Source of the DNA: an uncultured Alphaproteobacteria bacterium
GTDB taxonomy: Bacteria > Pseudomonadota > Alphaproteobacteria > Rs-D84
Reading direction: 5' to 3'
NCBI GenBank assembly: GCA_947305255.1
Contig: CAMZDE010000001.1
Coordinates: 8,305 to 72,304, forward strand
DNA: 64,000 nucleotides
The position numbers and the translations under genes are program-made. This document shows positions 9,007 to 52,850 of the stretch, one piece after another. How positions within the stretch are numbered: the stretch's first letter is position 1; each line of letters starts with the position of its first letter. The notes beneath the pieces are model-generated. The model ran no database searches and was not told the DNA's origin. It was given only the letters and a program-made list of their open reading frames with translations.

Positions 9007-9519
9007 TTATTTAGAATATGTAATTTTCAGAACTTTTTTGTTACTGATTGTTGAACACGTTGCGGTTCCATCAGAATATGTCCGCACCGCCATTGCTTCG
9101 CATTCTTCGGATTCAATCCCCACCAACCAGATAGCAAAACCATTGCCTTCCCCGCTTATTGCGTAATACGACCCATCCCCCAAAGGCGTCGTTGCTTCGG
9201 TCTTTAACAATACTCTTGCCATTTCATACGGCGTCATATAGTCAGATTCTCCACCGACGGTCTTTGTCGGCACCCCACTATTACTTATCCACGGCAAGAA
9301 ACCAAAATATCCGGTTGTCGCAAGATGTGCCGCAGCAAACGAACGCACTCCTTGGGCCAATGTACTTATTTCATCGGCGGCGCGATTGCGTTTTTGCGAT
9401 GCCATACCACTTTTAACCAAAACAAAAGCACCCGCGGTCAACAACCCTGCAACAGCCAACACGCCGACCATTTCTATCATTGAACGACCAGATTCCTGCT
9501 TCCTTAAAAATTTAAACAT
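9007..9519 (-). CDS. type IV pilin-like protein, paralog 4 (mosaic with paralog 3)
   Basis: N-terminal 44 aa and C-terminal 32 aa are identical to paralog 3. The central region differs. Confidence 0.75.
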   Translation of the reverse strand: MFKFLRKQESGRSMIEMVGVLAVAGLLTAGAFVLVKSGMASQKRNRAADEISTLAQGVRSFAAAHLATTGYFGFLPWISNSGVPTKTVGGESDYMTPYEMARVLLKTEATTPLGDGSYYAISGEGNGFAIWLVGIESEECEAMAVRTYSDGTATCSTISNKKVLKITYSK

Positions 9520-9542
9520 ATCGTATTCCCTTTGTTAAAAAA

Positions 9543-10064
9543 TTATTTACCAAAATAGAACCACGCGGTCCCTTGAACACAGGATGCATCCGCGGCGACA
9601 CCGTGCCACGCCTCTAATGCCAACAATTTGCAATCTTCTTCGTCCAGATTCGCCAATCCCACCCTGAAATAAACAGATGTGCCATCATTTTGCACCCCGA
9701 AATATTCATACCAACTGGCATTATGTGTTGCATCGGATTGCGTAATAACGTAATATGTATCTTCACCCATAGGTGTCACACCATTTGTTTTCAACAAAGC
9801 CTTTGCCATATTATGACCACCTTTGCCACGACCTATTTCGTTTGCCCCCGGCAAAGTAGTAAATTTGCTGCCTTCGGCGGTCAAAGTACGCACAGATTGA
9901 GCCAACGTATTCATTTCATCCATTGCACGACGGCGTTTTTGTGATGACATACCACTTTGAATCAAAACGAACGCGCCCGCGGTCAACAAGCCCGCAACAG
10001 CCAACACGCCGACCATTTCAATCATCGAACGGCCCGCTTCTACTTTTTTATTACAACGTTTCAT
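9543..10064 (-). CDS. type IV pilin-like protein, paralog 5
   Basis: EAGRSMIEMVGVLAVAGLLTAGAFVLIQSGMSSQKRRRA N-terminus. C-terminal CKLLALEAWHGVAADASC loop. Confidence 0.75.
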   Translation of the reverse strand: MKRCNKKVEAGRSMIEMVGVLAVAGLLTAGAFVLIQSGMSSQKRRRAMDEMNTLAQSVRTLTAEGSKFTTLPGANEIGRGKGGHNMAKALLKTNGVTPMGEDTYYVITQSDATHNASWYEYFGVQNDGTSVYFRVGLANLDEEDCKLLALEAWHGVAADASCVQGTAWFYFGK

Positions 10065-16998: not shown

Positions 16999-17517
16999 TT
17001 AAAAACCATTCGTCAAAGAGACACTGGTTATATCATCACTGTCCCAAGTTGTATAAACAGCAACCTGTTGCGCAGCGATATAATCTTTCACAGCTTTTAC
17101 AGCCCCACTCAACCCATCTCCCGCAACAAGAAACCGCGAAAGAAGATTAGTCTGCAAATTATCGTTTAAAAATACTTCTCTGACTATATCGTCACCTGCC
17201 ACTGACCCAAGTGCCATATTTTCCATTGCTCTACCTGTTTCGTCATTAATAATCTTTCCCTGTTTATCACTGTCCAATTTATTCACCGCCGCAATTGCGT
17301 CATTGTATGCACCCTTGACATACGCAGTGGTGGCGATATGCGTTTCGTCGGCCGCCGTTGGTGTGATTGTCACATATGGTGCCGGTGCAGTTGCAACAAC
17401 CGCCGTTCCATTTGCCGGCACCGCGGACGGCCCGACCGGCGTCACAGGGTCTGCATTTGCAGCAAACGTCGACGACGCAATCATTGTTAATGTTAATAAT
17501 AGCTGTTTCGTTGTCAT
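16999..17517 (-). CDS. secreted protein of unknown function, HIATTAYVKGAYN/YTTWDDD family, copy A
   Basis: Start MTTKQLLLTLTMIASSTFAANA (signal peptide) with GGAGAG RBS. Shares the conserved core TADETHIATTAYVKGAYNDAIAAVNK and C-terminal YTTWDSDD with the ORFs at 22355-22846 and 52007-52540. Confidence 0.6.
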   Translation of the reverse strand: MTTKQLLLTLTMIASSTFAANADPVTPVGPSAVPANGTAVVATAPAPYVTITPTAADETHIATTAYVKGAYNDAIAAVNKLDSDKQGKIINDETGRAMENMALGSVAGDDIVREVFLNDNLQTNLLSRFLVAGDGLSGAVKAVKDYIAAQQVAVYTTWDSDDITSVSLTNGF

Positions 17518-17723
17518 TGTTTCTCTCCTTTTGTTCGTTTTAACAACAAACAACCACCCGATTAAATGGGTGGTTGGAGGTTCAAGACAATTGTAGTTTA
17601 AATTGTGCCGTTTATTTTACCATATGGTATTATTCACGGGCCCTCCAACCATAAATTAAGGTTGGAGTTTTTACGTCTCTCCTGACGAACTTACATCGGG
17701 CCTTGATACCCCATCGGAAAAAC
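17518..17723 (-). promoter_or_regulatory. conserved structured 5' leader, copy 1, with terminator/antiterminator alternative pairing (candidate riboswitch or attenuator)
   Basis: Read on the minus strand. 5' hairpin UCGGAAAGGG..CCGA. Central stem with conserved GAAUAA and ACAAUUU/AAAUUGU hairpin. CUCCAACC/GGUUGGAG, GGUUGGAGG/CCUCCAACC and CAACCACCC/GGGUGGUUG+UUUGUUGUU pairings are mutually exclusive. Two more copies with compensatory substitutions are at 22847-23107 and 52541-52745. Confidence 0.5.
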
Positions 17724-17729
17724 CCTTTC

Positions 17730-17738
17730 CGACGTAAA
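17730..17738 (-). promoter_or_regulatory. putative extended -10 promoter element TGATAAAAT for the leader and copy A
   Basis: Minus-strand TGATAAAAT lies about 7 nt upstream of the conserved GUCGG leader start. The same nonamer is at the same position in the other two copies (23114-23122, 52752-52760). Confidence 0.35.
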
Positions 17739-17770
17739 TATTTTATCATTTTTCAAAAACTAAAACAAGG

Positions 17771-17800
17771 ACAAAAAAAGTACCGCCCAAACGGGCGGTT
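17771..17800 (-). terminator. intrinsic terminator of dnaA
   Basis: ACCGCCCAAACGGGCGGT hairpin followed on the minus strand by TTTTTTTGTCC. Confidence 0.6.
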
Positions 17801-17805
17801 ATGTT

Positions 17806-19083
17806 TTATTTGCAAACTTTAATTAAATCGGCGATTTCTGCATTCAATATTAAATCCGACGCCTTTTGATTTTCAATTTGTGACAATGCATACACAACCG
17901 TTGCATGATCGCGGCCGCCGCATACGTTGCCAATTTCGGTCAACGATAAATTTGTAACAGATTTTAATACAGCCATCATTATCTGACGCGCACGAACCAA
18001 ACGACGTGTGCGGGAATTACCACAAATTTCATCATATGAAACACACATTTTTTCACACATAGATTTTACCATCATCGTTGGTGTTTTATTTTTATTCAAC
18101 ACATCACCCAACAAACGCGCGGCAACATCCATATCTACGGTTTCACCCATCAATTCAGTATATGTTTTAATTTTGCTGATGATGCCATTCACCAAATGAC
18201 CATCGCCACCAATTTGTTTTGATAATTCATCTGCAACCGTTCCATCAACACCGGCACGATTTAACATAGCGCGACGAACATATGCGTTCGGTGCAACAAC
18301 ATCAACCACCAAACCCGACGCGAACAGCGATTGCATACGTCTATCGAACCCAGTCAACGCGTTCGGTGCAGCGTTCGCAGTCAACACAACCGATTTTCCA
18401 TTTGCGCGCAAATCAGTCAACAACTGTAAAAATTCGTCCATTGTCGCACGTTTGCCGGCCAACGCACAAACATCGTCCAAAATGAACATATCGCAATTGC
18501 GGCAATAATCTTTGAATGAAAATATAGTTTTATCACGCAATGCACGTGCAAAATCAGAAACAAATTGTCCACCCGACATCATAACAACACGTTTGTTTGA
18601 TGTCGCACAAATGCAATTCGCTAACAATGTTTTACCACAACCCGCCGGCCCAGCGATAAACAGTTGTGAAAATGATGCCCCACCAACAGCAATCTTTTTG
18701 CATGCGGCCACCGCGAACATATTATCATCACAGGCAACAAAATCATCAAACGCATTACGTTTTGCCTGAACAATATTTTTTGTTTCTGGGGCGTATGCAC
18801 AAACAACATTATCATTTGCAGAATTCAAATTCACATGTGCCGCCACAGCGATATTTAATTCCAAAGAAAAATCCGCCGCAATGTCTTGGATGATTTTTCC
18901 ATAATTTCTTTTGACATGGTCGGCGGAAAATTGATTGTGCGCAATTAAATTCAAACGATTATCAACAATTTCAAATTGCAGCGGCATAACCCAGGCAGCA
19001 AACCCCGCAGAATCTATCTGTGACGCAATCGCCATTTTGATTGATTCTACATTTACGTTCTGTTTTGTTATTGCTAACTGCAT
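17806..19083 (-). CDS. dnaA: chromosomal replication initiator protein DnaA (compact, 425 aa)
   Basis: AAA+ Walker A GPAGCGKT. Domain IV signature RTRRLVRARQIMMAVLK...IGNVCGGRDHATVVYA. Confidence 0.85.
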   Translation of the reverse strand: MQLAITKQNVNVESIKMAIASQIDSAGFAAWVMPLQFEIVDNRLNLIAHNQFSADHVKRNYGKIIQDIAADFSLELNIAVAAHVNLNSANDNVVCAYAPETKNIVQAKRNAFDDFVACDDNMFAVAACKKIAVGGASFSQLFIAGPAGCGKTLLANCICATSNKRVVMMSGGQFVSDFARALRDKTIFSFKDYCRNCDMFILDDVCALAGKRATMDEFLQLLTDLRANGKSVVLTANAAPNALTGFDRRMQSLFASGLVVDVVAPNAYVRRAMLNRAGVDGTVADELSKQIGGDGHLVNGIISKIKTYTELMGETVDMDVAARLLGDVLNKNKTPTMMVKSMCEKMCVSYDEICGNSRTRRLVRARQIMMAVLKSVTNLSLTEIGNVCGGRDHATVVYALSQIENQKASDLILNAEIADLIKVCK

Positions 19084-22354: not shown

Positions 22355-22846
22355 TTAATCTTCGGGTAACACTGTTTCCAATGGAATATTAACCGAATCC
22401 CTGTCATCATCCCACGTCGTATAGATTTTAACCCGTTGACTTTTGATACCGGCCTGCACAGCAGCGCCAGATACTAAGTTTCTATCGGTCAATTCAAAAT
22501 CCTCTTCCCCAGCGAGAATATTTACAAAATAAGTACCGCCGTATACCTCATTGTCGACAAAAACAAACTCATCTCCATCAACAAAAAGTAGATCTTGTTT
22601 CTGATTCAATCCAGCAATCGTGTCATTATATGCGCCCTTGACATATGCGGTTGTGGCGATATGTTCCGCATCAGCGTTTGTTATGGTTGCGGTTGTATAA
22701 GGTCCGTTATAACTAGCCATTGTCACAGTTCCATTTTGTGGCACAAGTGCTGGACTACTTACATAGTTATACGTGTAATCAGCCATTGACACGCACGGCA
22801 ATGCGGCAATTATTGCTAATGTTAATAGCGGTTTCATTGTTCTCAT
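22355..22846 (-). CDS. secreted protein of unknown function, HIATTAYVKGAYN/YTTWDDD family, copy B
   Basis: Signal peptide MRTMKPLLTLAIIAALPCVSMA. Core DAEHIATTAYVKGAYNDTIAGLNQ. C-terminal IYTTWDDDRDS. Confidence 0.6.
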   Translation of the reverse strand: MRTMKPLLTLAIIAALPCVSMADYTYNYVSSPALVPQNGTVTMASYNGPYTTATITNADAEHIATTAYVKGAYNDTIAGLNQKQDLLFVDGDEFVFVDNEVYGGTYFVNILAGEEDFELTDRNLVSGAAVQAGIKSQRVKIYTTWDDDRDSVNIPLETVLPED

Positions 22847-23107
22847 AGTCTTTTCTCCTTTATTCTTTATTTATCCGATTGTGTGGGGAATCACCCCGCC
22901 GCAAGCGCCCCCCCGTGGAGGGGAATTAACAAAAGAACAACCACCCCATAAGTAAAGGTGGTTGGAGGTTAGCTACAATTTAAGTCGAAATTGTGTGCCT
23001 TATTCAATTTATTCGGCAACCCTCCAACCATATGTTGGAGATTTTAACGTCATCTCTGGCGCGACTTAATCGGGCAGCTACACCCCATCGCAAAAACTCT
23101 CTGCGAC
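22847..23107 (-). promoter_or_regulatory. conserved structured 5' leader, copy 2 (contains an extra ~50 bp GC-rich insertion at 22881-22930)
   Basis: Same architecture as copy 1. Terminator stem CAACCACC/GGUGGUUG. 5' hairpin UCGCAGAGAG..UGCGA with compensatory GC/CG changes. Extended -10 TGATAAAAT at 23114-23122. Confidence 0.5.
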
Positions 23108-23142
23108 GATGATATTTTATCATTTTTCAAAAATTAAAACAA

Positions 23143-39646: not shown

Positions 39647-40321
39647 TTATTTAGATAATTTTTTAATAACAAAATCAGATAGCAATAAACCAAAAGTTCC
39701 GGTCACCGTAATAATCGAACCAAATTCGCGACCACCATTTTTTTGTGGTGCCGCATTTTCAGTTGAATATACAACCGGAAAATCTTTCATTTTTAAATAA
39801 CGAACCATATGACGAATCTTGGCCGCCAACGGACAAACCGTCGTTTTTGAAATTTTATCTACTTTAATTTTTGTTATGTCCATCTTGCGCGCCGCCCCCA
39901 TACTGGATACAAAAGGAACCCCTTTGGCAAAACACCATTTATATAGCGCAATCTTTGATTGAACGGTATCTATCGCATCTATGACAAAATCAGGTCGCAA
40001 ATCAATATTGGTATTTTCATCAAAAAACATATTATAAACATCAACAATAATATCTGGATTTATATCGTGAATACGCTGTTTTGCAACATCAACCTTTGGT
40101 TTCCCAATTGTTGAATCTGATGCGAACAATTGACGGTTTATGTTTGATTCTTCAACATTATCAAAATCAATCAAAATTAAATGCCCAACACCGCATCGCG
40201 CCAAAGATTCAACCGCAAAAGAACCAACGGCACCGCACCCGACCACCATAACAGTCGATTTTTGTAATTTATCAATAGCCTCTTTGCCCATCAACAAAGA
40301 TATACGATGCAATCTATCCAT
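39647..40321 (-). CDS. tcdA: tRNA threonylcarbamoyladenosine dehydratase (ThiF/MoeB-family E1-like)
   Basis: VMVVGCGAVGSFAVESLARCGVGHLILIDFDNVEESNINRQL nucleotide-binding motif. Confidence 0.75.
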   Translation of the reverse strand: MDRLHRISLLMGKEAIDKLQKSTVMVVGCGAVGSFAVESLARCGVGHLILIDFDNVEESNINRQLFASDSTIGKPKVDVAKQRIHDINPDIIVDVYNMFFDENTNIDLRPDFVIDAIDTVQSKIALYKWCFAKGVPFVSSMGAARKMDITKIKVDKISKTTVCPLAAKIRHMVRYLKMKDFPVVYSTENAAPQKNGGREFGSIITVTGTFGLLLSDFVIKKLSK

Positions 40322-41006
40322 TTTGTAAAATCCTCTGGGTATTATTATATATACAATCCGAAATATTTGGATTGTTTTTTATCTCTGATATTTTATTAAC
40401 AACATCCCGCAAAAAAACACCTTCTTTGCCGTCTGTTTCAACCAAAATTTTATCATCATCAATTTGTGTTATACAGCGAAATCCGCCGTATAACACGTTT
40501 TTGCCAAACGAAAAATAAACTTTGTTTTTATAATTTTTAATAATGTATTTTATAACATCAATACTACCATTAAATGCATGAAAAACCATTATCGGCAAAT
40601 CTGAATTTTTATACAATTTTAACACACGAAAAATCTTGTCCCACGCACCAACACAATGAATAAAAACGATTCGTTTTAATTTAATAGCGATATCAAATTG
40701 CCGTCTAAAAACATCTATCTGTTTCTCAATATCAGGCTTATTTTTATCCAAACCAATCTCACCAACCATATACGATGAATTGCATAATAATAATTTTTCC
40801 AATCGTGTTTCGAACCCAAATTCAATCGTATCAATAAACCACGGATGCACCCCAAACGCACCATATACATTATTATCGGAATAGGTCAGATTTTCTAAAT
40901 CACGCCAATCTGATTCATGTGTTGCACAAATTATAGTCCCCACCACATCAGGTTGAAACCGATGAGTAATGTAATCAATATGACTATGTGCATCTATTAT
41001 CTTCAT
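40314..41006 (-). CDS. TatD-family metal-dependent hydrolase
   Basis: MKIIDAHSHID N-terminal His motif and TIM-barrel hydrolase pattern. Confidence 0.75.
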   Translation of the reverse strand: MKIIDAHSHIDYITHRFQPDVVGTIICATHESDWRDLENLTYSDNNVYGAFGVHPWFIDTIEFGFETRLEKLLLCNSSYMVGEIGLDKNKPDIEKQIDVFRRQFDIAIKLKRIVFIHCVGAWDKIFRVLKLYKNSDLPIMVFHAFNGSIDVIKYIIKNYKNKVYFSFGKNVLYGGFRCITQIDDDKILVETDGKEGVFLRDVVNKISEIKNNPNISDCIYNNTQRILQNG

Positions 41007-41389
41007 AAGATAAATCGTGACACATATATATTTTTTTGCAAGCAGGAAAAAAACACCAATTGTTCGCCATTTCTTATATCAATTTGGTTCGACACACAAA
41101 CACCCGCATGCTACACACCTGAAAAAAGTATAGACAAATTGTATATACAAATAATTTTATTATATATCTGCCCCTGTTTTTCAAATTGGAAACAAAAAAC
41201 AGATGGTCGGAAGGAGCGAAAATCAGTCAATCAAAGATTCCGTTGGTCTTTCAAGACAAACCCTATTATAGCCCCCGACATCATCGGGGATTATGTGTTG
41301 CAAAAAAATATCATAGAGATTAATTTCGCTTCACCCTATTTTCATTAACCCCTTTGTTGCAACACGTACAAATCAACCCATTTTCACCC

Positions 41390-41430: not shown

Positions 41431-41506
41431 TGGTGGAGACACAGGGATTCGAACCCTGGACCCACTGATTAAGAGTCAGTTGCTCTACCAACTGAGCTAT
41501 GTCTCC
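41431..41506 (-). tRNA. tRNA-Lys (CUU)
   Basis: Minus-strand cloverleaf GGAGACATAGCTCAGTTGGTAGAGCAACTGACTCTTAATCAGTGGGTCCAGGGTTCGAATCCCTGTGTCTCCACCA. Confidence 0.8.
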
Positions 41507-51974: not shown

Positions 51975-52010
51975 AAAAAAAGCACCGCCAAATCGGCGGT
52001 GTTTTTTTAT
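51975..52010. terminator. bidirectional intrinsic terminator between dksA and copy C
   Basis: CACCGCCAAATCGGCGGTG hairpin with an A-run before it and a T-run after it. Confidence 0.6.
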
Positions 52011-52540
52011 TGTCCAGATGCAGTGACCAATGGCACCTCTGCCACATCGTCATCATCCCACGTGGTATAAATTTCCACACGTTTGTTTGATATCGTGTTA
52101 TTAATATCACTTTTTGCTTGGTTTACCAACCACACAGTACCGCCCAAAGACACCAAAAGGCGTTCTTGATCTCCATCCAAAAACCAATCCAACCCCTCCG
52201 CTTCCAATCCATCACCATCAACCACTTCTGAGATAATATACTCGGAATCCCCATTAACCAATATACCTTGATAACCAGTTAGTCGTGCATCCACTTTATT
52301 CACCGCTGCAATTGCACTGTTATATGCACCTTTGACATAGGCGGTGGTGGCGATATGTTCTTGGTCGGCGGTGTCTATATCAATACGCCCAAACGGTGCG
52401 CCCGCTTGTGTTGTTGGTGCGGGGTGATTCGTATTCTCATGCGCTGGTGCGGTGTACATCGCACCCGAGATATTTTCAGCCATTGCAGTAAATGGTAACG
52501 CCGCGATTATGGCCATTGTTAATATTGTTTTTGTTTTCAT
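52007..52540 (-). CDS. secreted protein of unknown function, HIATTAYVKGAYN/YTTWDDD family, copy C
   Basis: Signal peptide MKTKTILTMAIIAALPFTAMA. Core DQEHIATTAYVKGAYNSAIAAVNKVD. C-terminal IYTTWDDDDVAEVPL. GGAGAG RBS. Confidence 0.6.
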   Translation of the reverse strand: MKTKTILTMAIIAALPFTAMAENISGAMYTAPAHENTNHPAPTTQAGAPFGRIDIDTADQEHIATTAYVKGAYNSAIAAVNKVDARLTGYQGILVNGDSEYIISEVVDGDGLEAEGLDWFLDGDQERLLVSLGGTVWLVNQAKSDINNTISNKRVEIYTTWDDDDVAEVPLVTASGQ

Positions 52541-52745
52541 CGTTTGCTCTCCTTTGTCTTCGACTTTATGACAAAAACAACCGCCCCTATAAAAGGCGGT
52601 TGGAGGCTAGAAACAATTGTAAGTCAAATTGTGCGCCTTATTCGATTTATTCGGCAGCCCTCCAACCGTATGTTGGAGCAATTTTACGTCGCTCAGACGA
52701 ACTTACATCGGGCTTCTAGACCCCATCGGAAAAACACTTCCCGAC
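52541..52745 (-). promoter_or_regulatory. conserved structured 5' leader, copy 3
   Basis: Terminator stem CAACCGCC/GGCGGUUG+UUUUUGU. CUCCAAC/GUUGGAG and GGUUGGAGG/CCUCCAACC alternative pairings. 5' hairpin UCGGGAAGUG..CCGA. Extended -10 TGATAAAAT at 52752-52760. Confidence 0.5.
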
Positions 52746-52850
52746 AAGGTTATTTTATCAAAAATCGTTTTATGGTGCAAATATAAATTTCAATATACGA
52801 AAAACATTTCACCAAATATGGCGTCACAAAAAAACAAAATATTTGAAAAA

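Follow-up and report, generated by a model that had tools for sequence, protein, structure and literature searches.

C4 RNA consists of stems P1-P3, and its variable a' and b' loops determine specificity (PMC5320573). RNase P cleaves it at GGW, the 5' end of P1 (PMC5320573, citing Hartmann 1995); C4-like RNAs are cut from longer transcripts and have many chromosomal copies in Acinetobacter (PMC5320573). The P4 CI RNA pairs with seqA/seqC, which leads to premature termination, and the inactive state of IsrK is a long-range cis helix that a short RNA flips or opens in trans (PMC4825925). IsrK and C4 correspond to seqA and CI, respectively (PMC3632133). sRNA-Xcc1 (Rfam family RF02221) was published as a trans-acting, virulence-linked small RNA (sRNA) (PMC2996969, PMC12189769) and was detected as a stable RNA of 88 nucleotides (nt) that matches the core exactly (PMC2996969); passing remarks place it upstream of symE or of an ORF6N gene (10.1101/2025.06.18.660453; 10.1101/2020.03.17.996009). 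Here we describe a strongly structured leader RNA of ~200 nt with a terminator at its 3' end, which occurs three times in a 64-kb stretch of contig CAMZDE010000001.1 from an uncultured alphaproteobacterium (the whole stretch analysed, below called the window). The leader is a diverged, re-engineered member of the Xcc1/C4 kind, in a use for which no description was found for that kind. It is real and conserved, and almost certainly regulatory. What is new is a self-contained, terminator-fused, multi-copy chromosomal leader, not a class from nothing.

Architecture of the Leader

All three leaders are read on the minus strand, and each lies 5' of a small gene (16999-17517, 22355-22846 and 52007-52540). 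The original prediction, made from the letters of the window, had described three minus-strand leaders with a promoter, a 5' hairpin, elements I, II and III, a central stem, an ACAAUU hairpin and a terminator, and every one of these parts is where it had been placed. Mean column identity across the alignment of the three window leaders is 71%. The exact words GGTTGGAGG/CCTCCAACC occur only at the three leaders when the whole window is searched in both orientations. The element coordinates that follow, for the type-A form defined below, are those of copy 1.

Copy 1 begins with an extended -10 box, TGATAAAAT (17740..17748), the probable start of the transcript being ~7 nt downstream. The 5' hairpin P0 (GUCGGAAAGGGUUUUUCCGAU, 17713..17733) is followed by a hairpin HX, GGGG-UAUCAAGG-CCCG (17697..17712), with a conserved GGG/CCC stem and a loop that holds the hypervariable segment X (17701-17706). 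Then come a second hypervariable segment, Y, which is single-stranded (17688..17695), and the hairpin H3 (CGUCAGGAGAGACG, 17674..17687), which is succeeded by UAAAAA and has no U-tract. H3 occupies the position at which the IsrK-like partners of genuine sRNA-Xcc1 have a terminator.

Element I (CUCCAACC, 17660..17667) is a weakened copy of element III and pairs with element II (GGUUGGAGG, 17642..17650). The latter starts with GGU and forms the 5' strand of P1 of an Xcc1-like core. Within this core, the P2 stem CCCG/CGG (17607..17641) contains an internal loop, conserved as GAAUAA / AAAUAAA, and may bear a sub-hairpin, UACCAUAUGGUA. The loop of the P3 hairpin ACAAUUU-AAACUAC-AAUUGU (17587..17606) is Y' (17592-17599), the partner of Y, and the linker from P3 to III is X' (17582..17587), the partner of X. 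The 3' strand of P1 is element III (CCUCCAACC, 17572..17580), and its last 5 nt open the 5' arm of an intrinsic terminator, CAACCACCC-AUUUAAUC-GGGUGGUUG plus UUUGUUG (17544..17576), assigned by a consensus scan and by pairing. The same scan detects the terminator in copies 1 and 3. The ribosome-binding site (RBS), GGAGAG, lies at 17523-17528, and RBS and regulated gene together extend over 16999..17528.

Homologous Leaders

Relatives of the protein encoded downstream were taken from metagenome contigs and from contigs encoding specific homologues, and their leaders were found by nhmmer. The search gave 41 distinct homologous leaders, always directly 5' of the gene: 27 of type A (including the window copies), 13 of type B and one truncated (L010). 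The original prediction had treated the three copies as more than a recent duplication, and the 41 distinct leaders, with compensatory changes on realignment, bear this out.

In type A, element I is CUCCAAC, element II GGUUGGAGG, element III CCUCCAACC and the 3' arm of the terminator GGUGGUUG; the corresponding sequences of type B are UCCC(U/C)GA, GUCGGGGAG, CUCCCCGAC and GGUGGUC. The P2 loop of type A is GAAUA(N)GAAUAAG, usually with no sub-hairpin, and that of type B is UAUAAAACA-GGGG-GNRA-CCC-AAAG. A further subtype, C, with P1 strands GGCCAGGAG/CUCCUGGCC, is located at L004:3800-4060 on the minus strand, 5' of an unrelated lipoprotein-like open reading frame (ORF). Contig L004 carries types A, B and C, all within 7 kb.

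Type-A-like leaders were also found 5' of other genes on four contigs that IMG/VR classes as viral and that represent three distinct loci. The leader at L080:8425-8630 precedes an MsbA-like ABC exporter and has no clear terminator; those at L074 (minus strand, 9430-9700) and L073:11990-12215 precede a cytoplasmic-looking protein and another secreted protein. Each leader 5' of an unrelated gene has its own X/Y code. Since leaders stand 5' of unrelated genes on the IMG/VR contigs and, as subtype C, on L004, the device is modular within the lineage. Its placement is constant, always 30-100 nt 5' of an ORF on the same strand.

Covariation of the Helices

Joint alignment of types A and B by MAFFT misplaced the 5' domains and P2/P3, and RNAalifold then gave P1 alone. 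The subtypes were therefore aligned separately (alignments A4 and A6), and an alignment based on a covariance model (A7) was added. Percentages below refer to paired cells, and counts for type A were taken from alignment A4 with its 27 leaders.

The strongest covariation in the element is that of X:X' and Y:Y', two long-range helices that the original prediction missed. X:X' is 98.5% paired in type A, where four of five pairs changed on both sides, and 100% paired in type B (three of five). Y:Y' is 90% paired in both, with two-sided changes at all six pairs in type A and at all seven in type B. In the window, the Y:Y' match is imperfect in copy 1 (6 bp and a bulge), perfect over 8 bp in copy 2 and perfect over 6 bp in copy 3.

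Type-A P0 is 98.1% paired, and 6/8 of its pairs changed on both sides. P1 (II:III) turned out to be 100% paired in type A with two such pairs; between the subtypes its complementarity stays perfect while 3-4 pairs undergo two-sided change. Pairing of P3 reaches 100% in type A, with no two-sided change, and 91% in type B, where the sequence is another one, AAUCA/UGAUU. The I:II helix of type A is 97.7% paired and shows one-sided changes only (0 two-sided), mostly to G.U. The type-A terminator is 85% paired; three of its pairs changed on both sides, and the compensatory A:U to G:C swap pointed out in the original prediction was seen. P2 is 96% paired in type B, with three covarying pairs and a GNRA-capped sub-hairpin also present; in the model-based alignment 4/4 of its pairs changed on both sides, at 73% paired, a value lowered by alignment trouble. 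The pairing of P1, P2 and P3 was confirmed on 42 sequences. The length of H3 differs among leaders and its type-A columns are not countable; the type-B equivalent, CGGUGC-GAAA-GCAUCG, is 100% paired. In a shuffle control, 0/500 shuffles reach the observed covariation values, and moving the 3' partners by 1-3 columns causes pairing to fall to 25-56%.

Element I is a weakened copy of III in all three subtypes, C-to-U changes having created G.U pairs. Between subtypes, the 3' arm of the terminator changes in concert with I, II and III. The three helices that exclude one another (I:II, II:III and III:terminator) are therefore all under selection. Their mutual exclusivity was a central point of the original prediction; it is kept throughout by coordinated changes between subtypes, and the leader retains the look of an attenuator or expression platform.

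A Private Pairing Code

In the leaders, X is always complementary to X' and Y to Y', a regularity first seen by eye. An RNAduplex permutation gave a mean energy of -24.8 kcal/mol for the 5' domain with its own core, against -13.0 +/- 4.1 kcal/mol with the cores of other leaders, and the own core ranks first for 27 of 40 5' domains. Within the window, cognate duplexes have -18 to -25 kcal/mol and non-cognate ones -8 to -16. The flanking segments GGGG, CCCG, CAAUUU, AAUUGU and CCUCCAACC are nearly invariant, and X, Y, X' and Y' are near maximal entropy. An instructive pair is L004:9752-9974 and L005:9743-9974, where the protein (P0013), the terminator and the RBS are identical, but X, Y, X' and Y' differ and are internally matched. 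The two come from two metagenome samples, and the pattern looks like a swap, as a unit, of the part of the leader that holds its specificity.

No comparable partner was found outside the leader. For the 130 nt after the terminator, the duplex energy with X'/Y' is -15.4 kcal/mol in cognate and -14.4 kcal/mol in non-cognate combinations (median rank 15.5 of 40). A second, a2b2-like target of X'/Y' elsewhere in the window was not found either, the top matches being the trivial opposite strand.

Kinship with sRNA-Xcc1

The leaders were scanned against Rfam at gathering thresholds (53 bits for RF02221) and then in a permissive E-value mode. At gathering thresholds no family matches. In the permissive mode, the core from II to III aligns over the whole RF02221 model (positions 1-87 of 87) in five leaders: copy 1 (36.8 bits, E = 5.6e-5 locally), copy 3 (36.3 bits), L031 (44.8 bits), L021 (38.1 bits) and L008 (37.0 bits). 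Copy 2 is not listed for RF02221 at E <= 1. In the reverse direction, a covariance model built from 40 family cores (R1) matches the genuine Aeromonas Xcc1 with 30.7 bits (E = 2e-5) and does not match the other six genuine Xcc1 loci. The original prediction had recognised no described class, and had held that an Rfam scan without a significant match would support novelty. The scan is indeed empty at the gathering score; below it stands a relative, RF02221, aligned end to end in five leaders at 36.3-44.8 bits, and the Aeromonas match is reciprocal. The search for more members with a family model, which had been proposed along with it, gave this Aeromonas match and a weak fourth match in the window, described below.

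The three-way junction of RF02221, P1/P2/P3 followed by RCC(N), is present in the leaders, which have ACC/GCC after P1. The first bases of element II are GGU in types A and B and GGC in type C, and RCC(N) stands after P1; release of the core by RNase P would be compatible with this arrangement. The conserved RF02221 P2 loop AAUACAAUACCCGnAAGGGGAAUAA, present in 7/7 genuine loci, is not found in the window family. C4 (RF01695) and isrK (RF01394) are not listed at E <= 1 over the whole window, and both were found in a control phage locus (L063).

Seven genuine Xcc1 loci (L062-L068) were compared, from phage Aaphi23, Stx phage P13374, Neisseria, Aeromonas, Nitratidesulfovibrio, Pseudomonas and Azospirillum. 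Six of them lie 40-70 nt 5' of an ORF on the same strand, which, where named, is ant, BRO or Bro-N; in the Neisseria locus no gene follows immediately. Exact complements of the P3 loop and of the P3-P1 linker stand 60-110 nt upstream in all seven, within the loop of a small hairpin and the linker after that hairpin. In 6/7 loci a second X/Y pair stands just before or over the RBS. In P13374, an isrK and C4 pair with the same layout is situated 900 nt from Xcc1. By this sequence comparison, sRNA-Xcc1 looks like a cis-encoded antisense regulator of the c4/CI type, not a free virulence sRNA. No published description of these complementary sites was found in a literature search of incomplete coverage.

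Folding Energetics and Proposed Mechanism

Forty leaders were folded with ViennaRNA, whose energy model ignores pseudoknots and tertiary contacts. In all 40 the minimum-energy fold consists of P0 and an interrupted duplex of 16-22 bp between the 5' domain and the core, which joins GGGG-X...Y to Y'...X'-CUCC. It includes I:II in 39/40 leaders and the terminator in 38/40. P1 is absent from every minimum-energy fold, and forcing it costs 5.7-21.2 kcal/mol (mean 13.7). The complementarity of P1 is kept in three subtypes; therefore P1 must form at some stage.

We consider that the leader is a cis-acting transcription attenuator built from a phage-type antisense-RNA module, a reading to which we give a probability of roughly 55%. 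The analysis shows the helices with their covariation and mutual exclusivity, the family relationship, the lack of a downstream antisense target and the computed energies; we infer in which direction the switch regulates, in what order it folds and what triggers it. The 3' half (II, P2, P3, X' and III) would be the three-way-junction RNA of the sRNA-Xcc1 / C4 / P4-CI kind, and the 5' half (P0, the X hairpin, single-stranded Y and H3) would play the part of the IsrK / seqA / 'a1b1' partner. P1 (II:III) would act as an antiterminator, hiding the first five bases of the 5' arm of the terminator and permitting read-through (ON), and element I, by pairing with II, would oppose P1 as an anti-antiterminator. 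The 5' domain would dock on the core via X:X' and Y:Y', with docking as a toehold: the GGGG beside X would exchange its local CCC partner for the CUCC half of III, and the freed CAACC would join the terminator. The default state would thus be termination (OFF), and read-through would require that docking or I:II be prevented. By analogy with IsrK, the likeliest trigger would be a cognate RNA that acts in trans, such as a copy of the same leader after processing or termination; another factor is possible.

A bolder version makes the leader a self-addressed, RNA-coded bistable switch, in which RNA fragments left by earlier transcripts of a locus would act in trans, and only on nascent transcripts with the same code. 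The fragments would be the RNase P-released core or the 5' domain, and they would block docking in cis and so allow read-through; paralogs and other genes that bear the device would switch ON and OFF independently and heritably, as an RNA-based phase variation. The near saturation of X/Y, the presence of A, B and C on one contig and the matched swaps of L004/L005 are compatible with such a switch, which we regard as a rather improbable extension.

Several points weigh against the attenuator. All RF02221 matches fall below the curated 53 bits, and genuine members reach 80-86 bits. C4 (RF01695) and isrK (RF01394) give no match at E <= 10 on 17450-17850, so that a common descent of the 5' domain with the C4/isrK partners is no more than a possibility. 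Termination and read-through are themselves predictions from sequence and folding. The X/Y contacts might be kissing docks on an intact Xcc1-like P1/P3 fold that is more stable than computed; such docks would stabilise P1, and the sign of the switch would therefore invert. A partner in trans was not found in the 64-kb window, and, as H3 has no U-tract, a short IsrK-like RNA would need processing. Finally, the L080 leader has no recognisable terminator, and termination may therefore not be the only output.

Alternative Explanations

The strict conservation of some parts of the leader could have a different cause. In type A, the entropy profile shows the P2 loop, the P3 stem and P1 almost invariant amid drifting surroundings, and conservation of sequence beyond pairing usually means a binding partner. 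An RNA-binding protein of the lineage could read the junction or the A-rich loop (GAAUAA...GAAUAAG) and decide between P1 and the terminator, with X/Y as a scaffold, and one shared regulator would fit a leader that stands 5' of unrelated genes (the secreted family, the lipoprotein-like ORF, the ABC exporter and others). Such a protein-controlled attenuator is unlikely: subtypes A, B and C, within 7 kb of L004, differ at these 'conserved' sequences, so that one protein would have to recognise three sites, no candidate regulator gene is linked to the leaders, and the near-saturating diversity of X and Y is left unexplained. The same junction, aptamer-like and with conserved unpaired nucleotides, invites comparison with an ON riboswitch, to which the original prediction leaned. 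There a small molecule would bind at the II-III junction, stabilise P1 and prevent the terminator from forming; the 3' strand of P1 overlaps the 5' arm of the terminator as in ON riboswitches, and no Rfam family matches at threshold. However, the closest relatives, phage antisense RNAs, have other RNAs as their targets, the junction varies in sequence among the subtypes of one contig, the P2 sub-hairpin comes and goes, the regulated genes have no common metabolic or transport theme, and ~90 nt of extra 5' structure complementary to the 'aptamer' would be without a role. The variable, self-complementary X/Y loops, shared with phage Xcc1 and C4/IsrK loci, point away from the riboswitch-like slant and towards RNA-RNA recognition, and a ligand-controlled switch appears distinctly improbable.

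The product of the locus could also be the RNA itself. If the terminated leader of ~190 nt, or its RNase P-processed core, repressed distant targets via X'/Y', the element would be the gene of a trans-acting sRNA, in line with the stable 88-nt Xcc1 RNA, the C4-like processing and the Acinetobacter chromosomal copies (PMC2996969, PMC5320573), and with a core that, like RNase P substrates, has GGU at the start of II and RCC(N) after P1. Yet the sole cognate X'/Y' partner found is the same leader, with none in the 130 nt downstream or elsewhere in the window; besides, the leader is always 30-100 nt 5' of a same-strand ORF, and I, III and the terminator co-evolve with the core. A free sRNA is thus quite unlikely. 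Hardly credible is attenuation by a ribosome on the small upstream ORF beginning AUGGGG, which the original prediction had listed among the elements of the leader. The AUG is in the same place in 26/27 type-A leaders, and a ribosome at this position would mask X and Y and so prevent docking, but this ORF is not conserved: it is 6 to 56 codons long and its stop varies, a Shine-Dalgarno sequence is absent outside the P0 stem, 13/13 type-B leaders have UCG at the start position, and the genuine Xcc1 partners have no start codon there. The bases in question are accounted for by the closing pair of P0 and the HX stem.

Downstream Genes and Other Features of the Window

The product of the copy 1 gene is a secreted protein of 172 aa, and its family, which is uncharacterised, has HIATTAYVKGAYN as an invariant motif. 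The three downstream proteins are paralogs. Each has a signal peptide, the invariant block D..HIATTAYVKGAYNDAIAAVN and, at the C-terminus, the motif RVxIYTTWD; the family has several paralogs per genome. None has a significant Pfam or PHROG match. The 195 homologues of the downstream protein are all nameless and nearly all metagenomic, and the few matches in genomes are metagenome-assembled genomes labelled Candidatus Enterousia or "uncultured proteobacterium RUG"; the alphaproteobacterium of the window is thus most likely an inhabitant of gut or rumen. The AlphaFold model is poor (mean predicted local distance difference test, pLDDT, 61.8), and no fold in PDB or BFVD matches at E <= 0.001. 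A scan of GTDB genomes with the protein motif gave three distant loci only, none with the leader, which is likewise missing from the more distant relatives within the protein family, that of Ca. Enterousia among them. The neighbours in the window, assigned from translations, are dnaA, dnaJ, a topoisomerase IV subunit B-like gene, dprA, plsY, rpsT and a secretin-like ORF. A phage/plasmid immunity or antirepressor setting was not found for the window leaders.

Copy 2 (22847..23122, minus strand; gene 22355-22846) matches the family model with 81.1 bits. Its 5' parts are P0 at 23087-23107, HX at 23071-23086, Y at 23062-23069, I at 23033-23040 and II at 23021-23029, and its 3' parts are P3 at 22975-22994, X' at 22970-22975, III at 22960-22968 and the terminator at 22938-22964. 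Copy 3 (52541..52760, minus strand; gene 52007-52540), with its RF02221 match of 36.3 bits, has P0 at 52725-52745, HX at 52709-52724, Y at 52700-52707, I at 52671-52678 and II at 52659-52667, and further on P3 at 52613-52632, X' at 52608-52613, III at 52598-52606 and the terminator at 52578-52602.

Some leaders carry additional sequence between terminator and RBS. Copy 2 has an extra G/C-rich insert of ~85 nt before the RBS (22850-22935, minus strand; CCCCUCCACGGGGGGG...GGGGUGAUUCCCC), and G/C-rich inserts of ~60-90 nt occur in the same interval in L014 and L027. A second kind of insert at this place, AACCGCGGCCCCGCG.GAUGCGGGGACGGGU, was seen in L037, L016, L019, L053 and L010. No Rfam family matches the inserts scanned (copy 2 in the window, L019 and L027). 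An A-rich run immediately before the Shine-Dalgarno sequence is able to pair with the U-tract of the terminator (17523-17550 and 52543-52577), a pairing that recurs at many loci, e.g., L044, L056 and L042. Examples of this hairpin, which lies in the read-through mRNA, are UUUUUGUUUUU-AUC-AAAAACAAAAA-GGAG in L044 and UUGUU...AACAA in copy 1.

The nonamer TGATAAAAT also heads copy 2 (23114-23122), copy 3 (52752-52760) and nearly all 41 homologous leaders. The original prediction had likewise placed it at the head of the leaders, but it is common in this genome: it has 12 occurrences in the window, 11 of them on the minus strand, and the sites include 6864, 6894, 11559, 19536, 38065, 40455, 49324 and 55504. 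This abundant extended -10 is thus the usual strong -10 of the organism, and it could serve for promoter mapping in the genome.

The weak fourth match to the family-core model (22.2 bits, E about 0.002-0.003) is located at 41201-41290 on the minus strand, with a tRNA (41434-41506) on one side and an unannotated ORF of 230 aa (40314-41006) on the other. It resembles type B in having AUCCCCGAU / GUCGGGGG, a GGAAUC..UGAUU hairpin and CUCCUUCCGACC. The 3' arm of a terminator and a recognisable 5' domain are missing, as is a family gene downstream, and the match is probably what is left of a decayed copy. Sub-threshold Rfam matches to AbsR25, Phe leader and Leu leader at 58.7-58.95 kb were set aside as merely the end of a gene and its terminator.

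Significance and Comparison with Known Systems

If our reading is true, a phage immunity device made of an antisense RNA and a decoy has been rebuilt as a self-contained attenuator, and this attenuator has spread 5' of many chromosomal genes in poorly known gut and rumen Alphaproteobacteria. It would be a compact case of gene control through an intramolecular antisense duplex with a private code, and a natural design for orthogonal RNA switches. The reinterpretation of sRNA-Xcc1, with its upstream and downstream sites, gives concrete targets (ant, BRO and similar) to a functionally vague family. Should the bistable switch be true, it would amount to RNA-based phase variation derived from a domesticated phage immunity module.

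The likeness to sRNA-Xcc1 extends over the whole core and beyond. The junction has the same order and size, with a P1 of 9-10 bp, an A-rich P2 loop, an optional GNRA-type sub-hairpin, the P3 hairpin and a short linker, and P1 leads into RCC(N) and directly into a further hairpin; upstream there is a partner made of a loop and a linker that are complementary to the P3 loop and linker, and an ORF follows directly downstream on the same strand. The differences are equally clear. Genuine members have AAUACAAUACCCGnAAGGGGAAUAA where the window family has GAAUA..GAAUAAG. The window family has no second X/Y copy over the RBS and has an extra element I, its hairpin after P1 is a real terminator with a U-tract that shares five bases with III, and its 5' partner is without a terminator of its own, H3 being followed by UAAAA. 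The settings differ as well: Xcc1 occurs in integron cassettes (Xanthomonas), in Stx and other temperate phages and in plasmids, 5' of ant/BRO/symE genes, whereas the window family is chromosomal, multi-copy and 5' of secreted-protein genes.

Genuine Xcc1 loci share their architecture with c4 of P1/P7 (a1b1/a'b'/a2b2), CI of P4 (seqA/seqB/seqC) and IsrK. In these systems, as in the leaders, the variable loops of a P1-P3 RNA recognise short sequences of the same transcript, and the upstream partner is a hairpin loop plus linker. Unlike them, the window family has only the upstream set, with no downstream target and no context of phage immunity, and its core has a built-in terminator, so that one RNA is antisense, target and expression platform. 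The Group 1 sRNAs of Acinetobacter baumannii are similar in being of a phage type (C4-like), multiplied in the chromosome and different in their specificity loops (PMC5320573). They are free-standing sRNAs that score as C4, whereas the window RNAs are mRNA leaders with a terminator and their own complementary partner, Xcc1-like rather than C4-like.

Classical leaders with a terminator, an antiterminator and an anti-antiterminator, and the expression platforms of ON riboswitches (e.g., the pbuE adenine riboswitch), have three exclusive helices and a P1 that overlaps the 5' arm of the terminator. In the leaders described here, by contrast, what the switch senses appears to be an RNA duplex formed under a private code within the molecule, and possibly also in trans, rather than a ligand, tRNA, ribosome or known protein.

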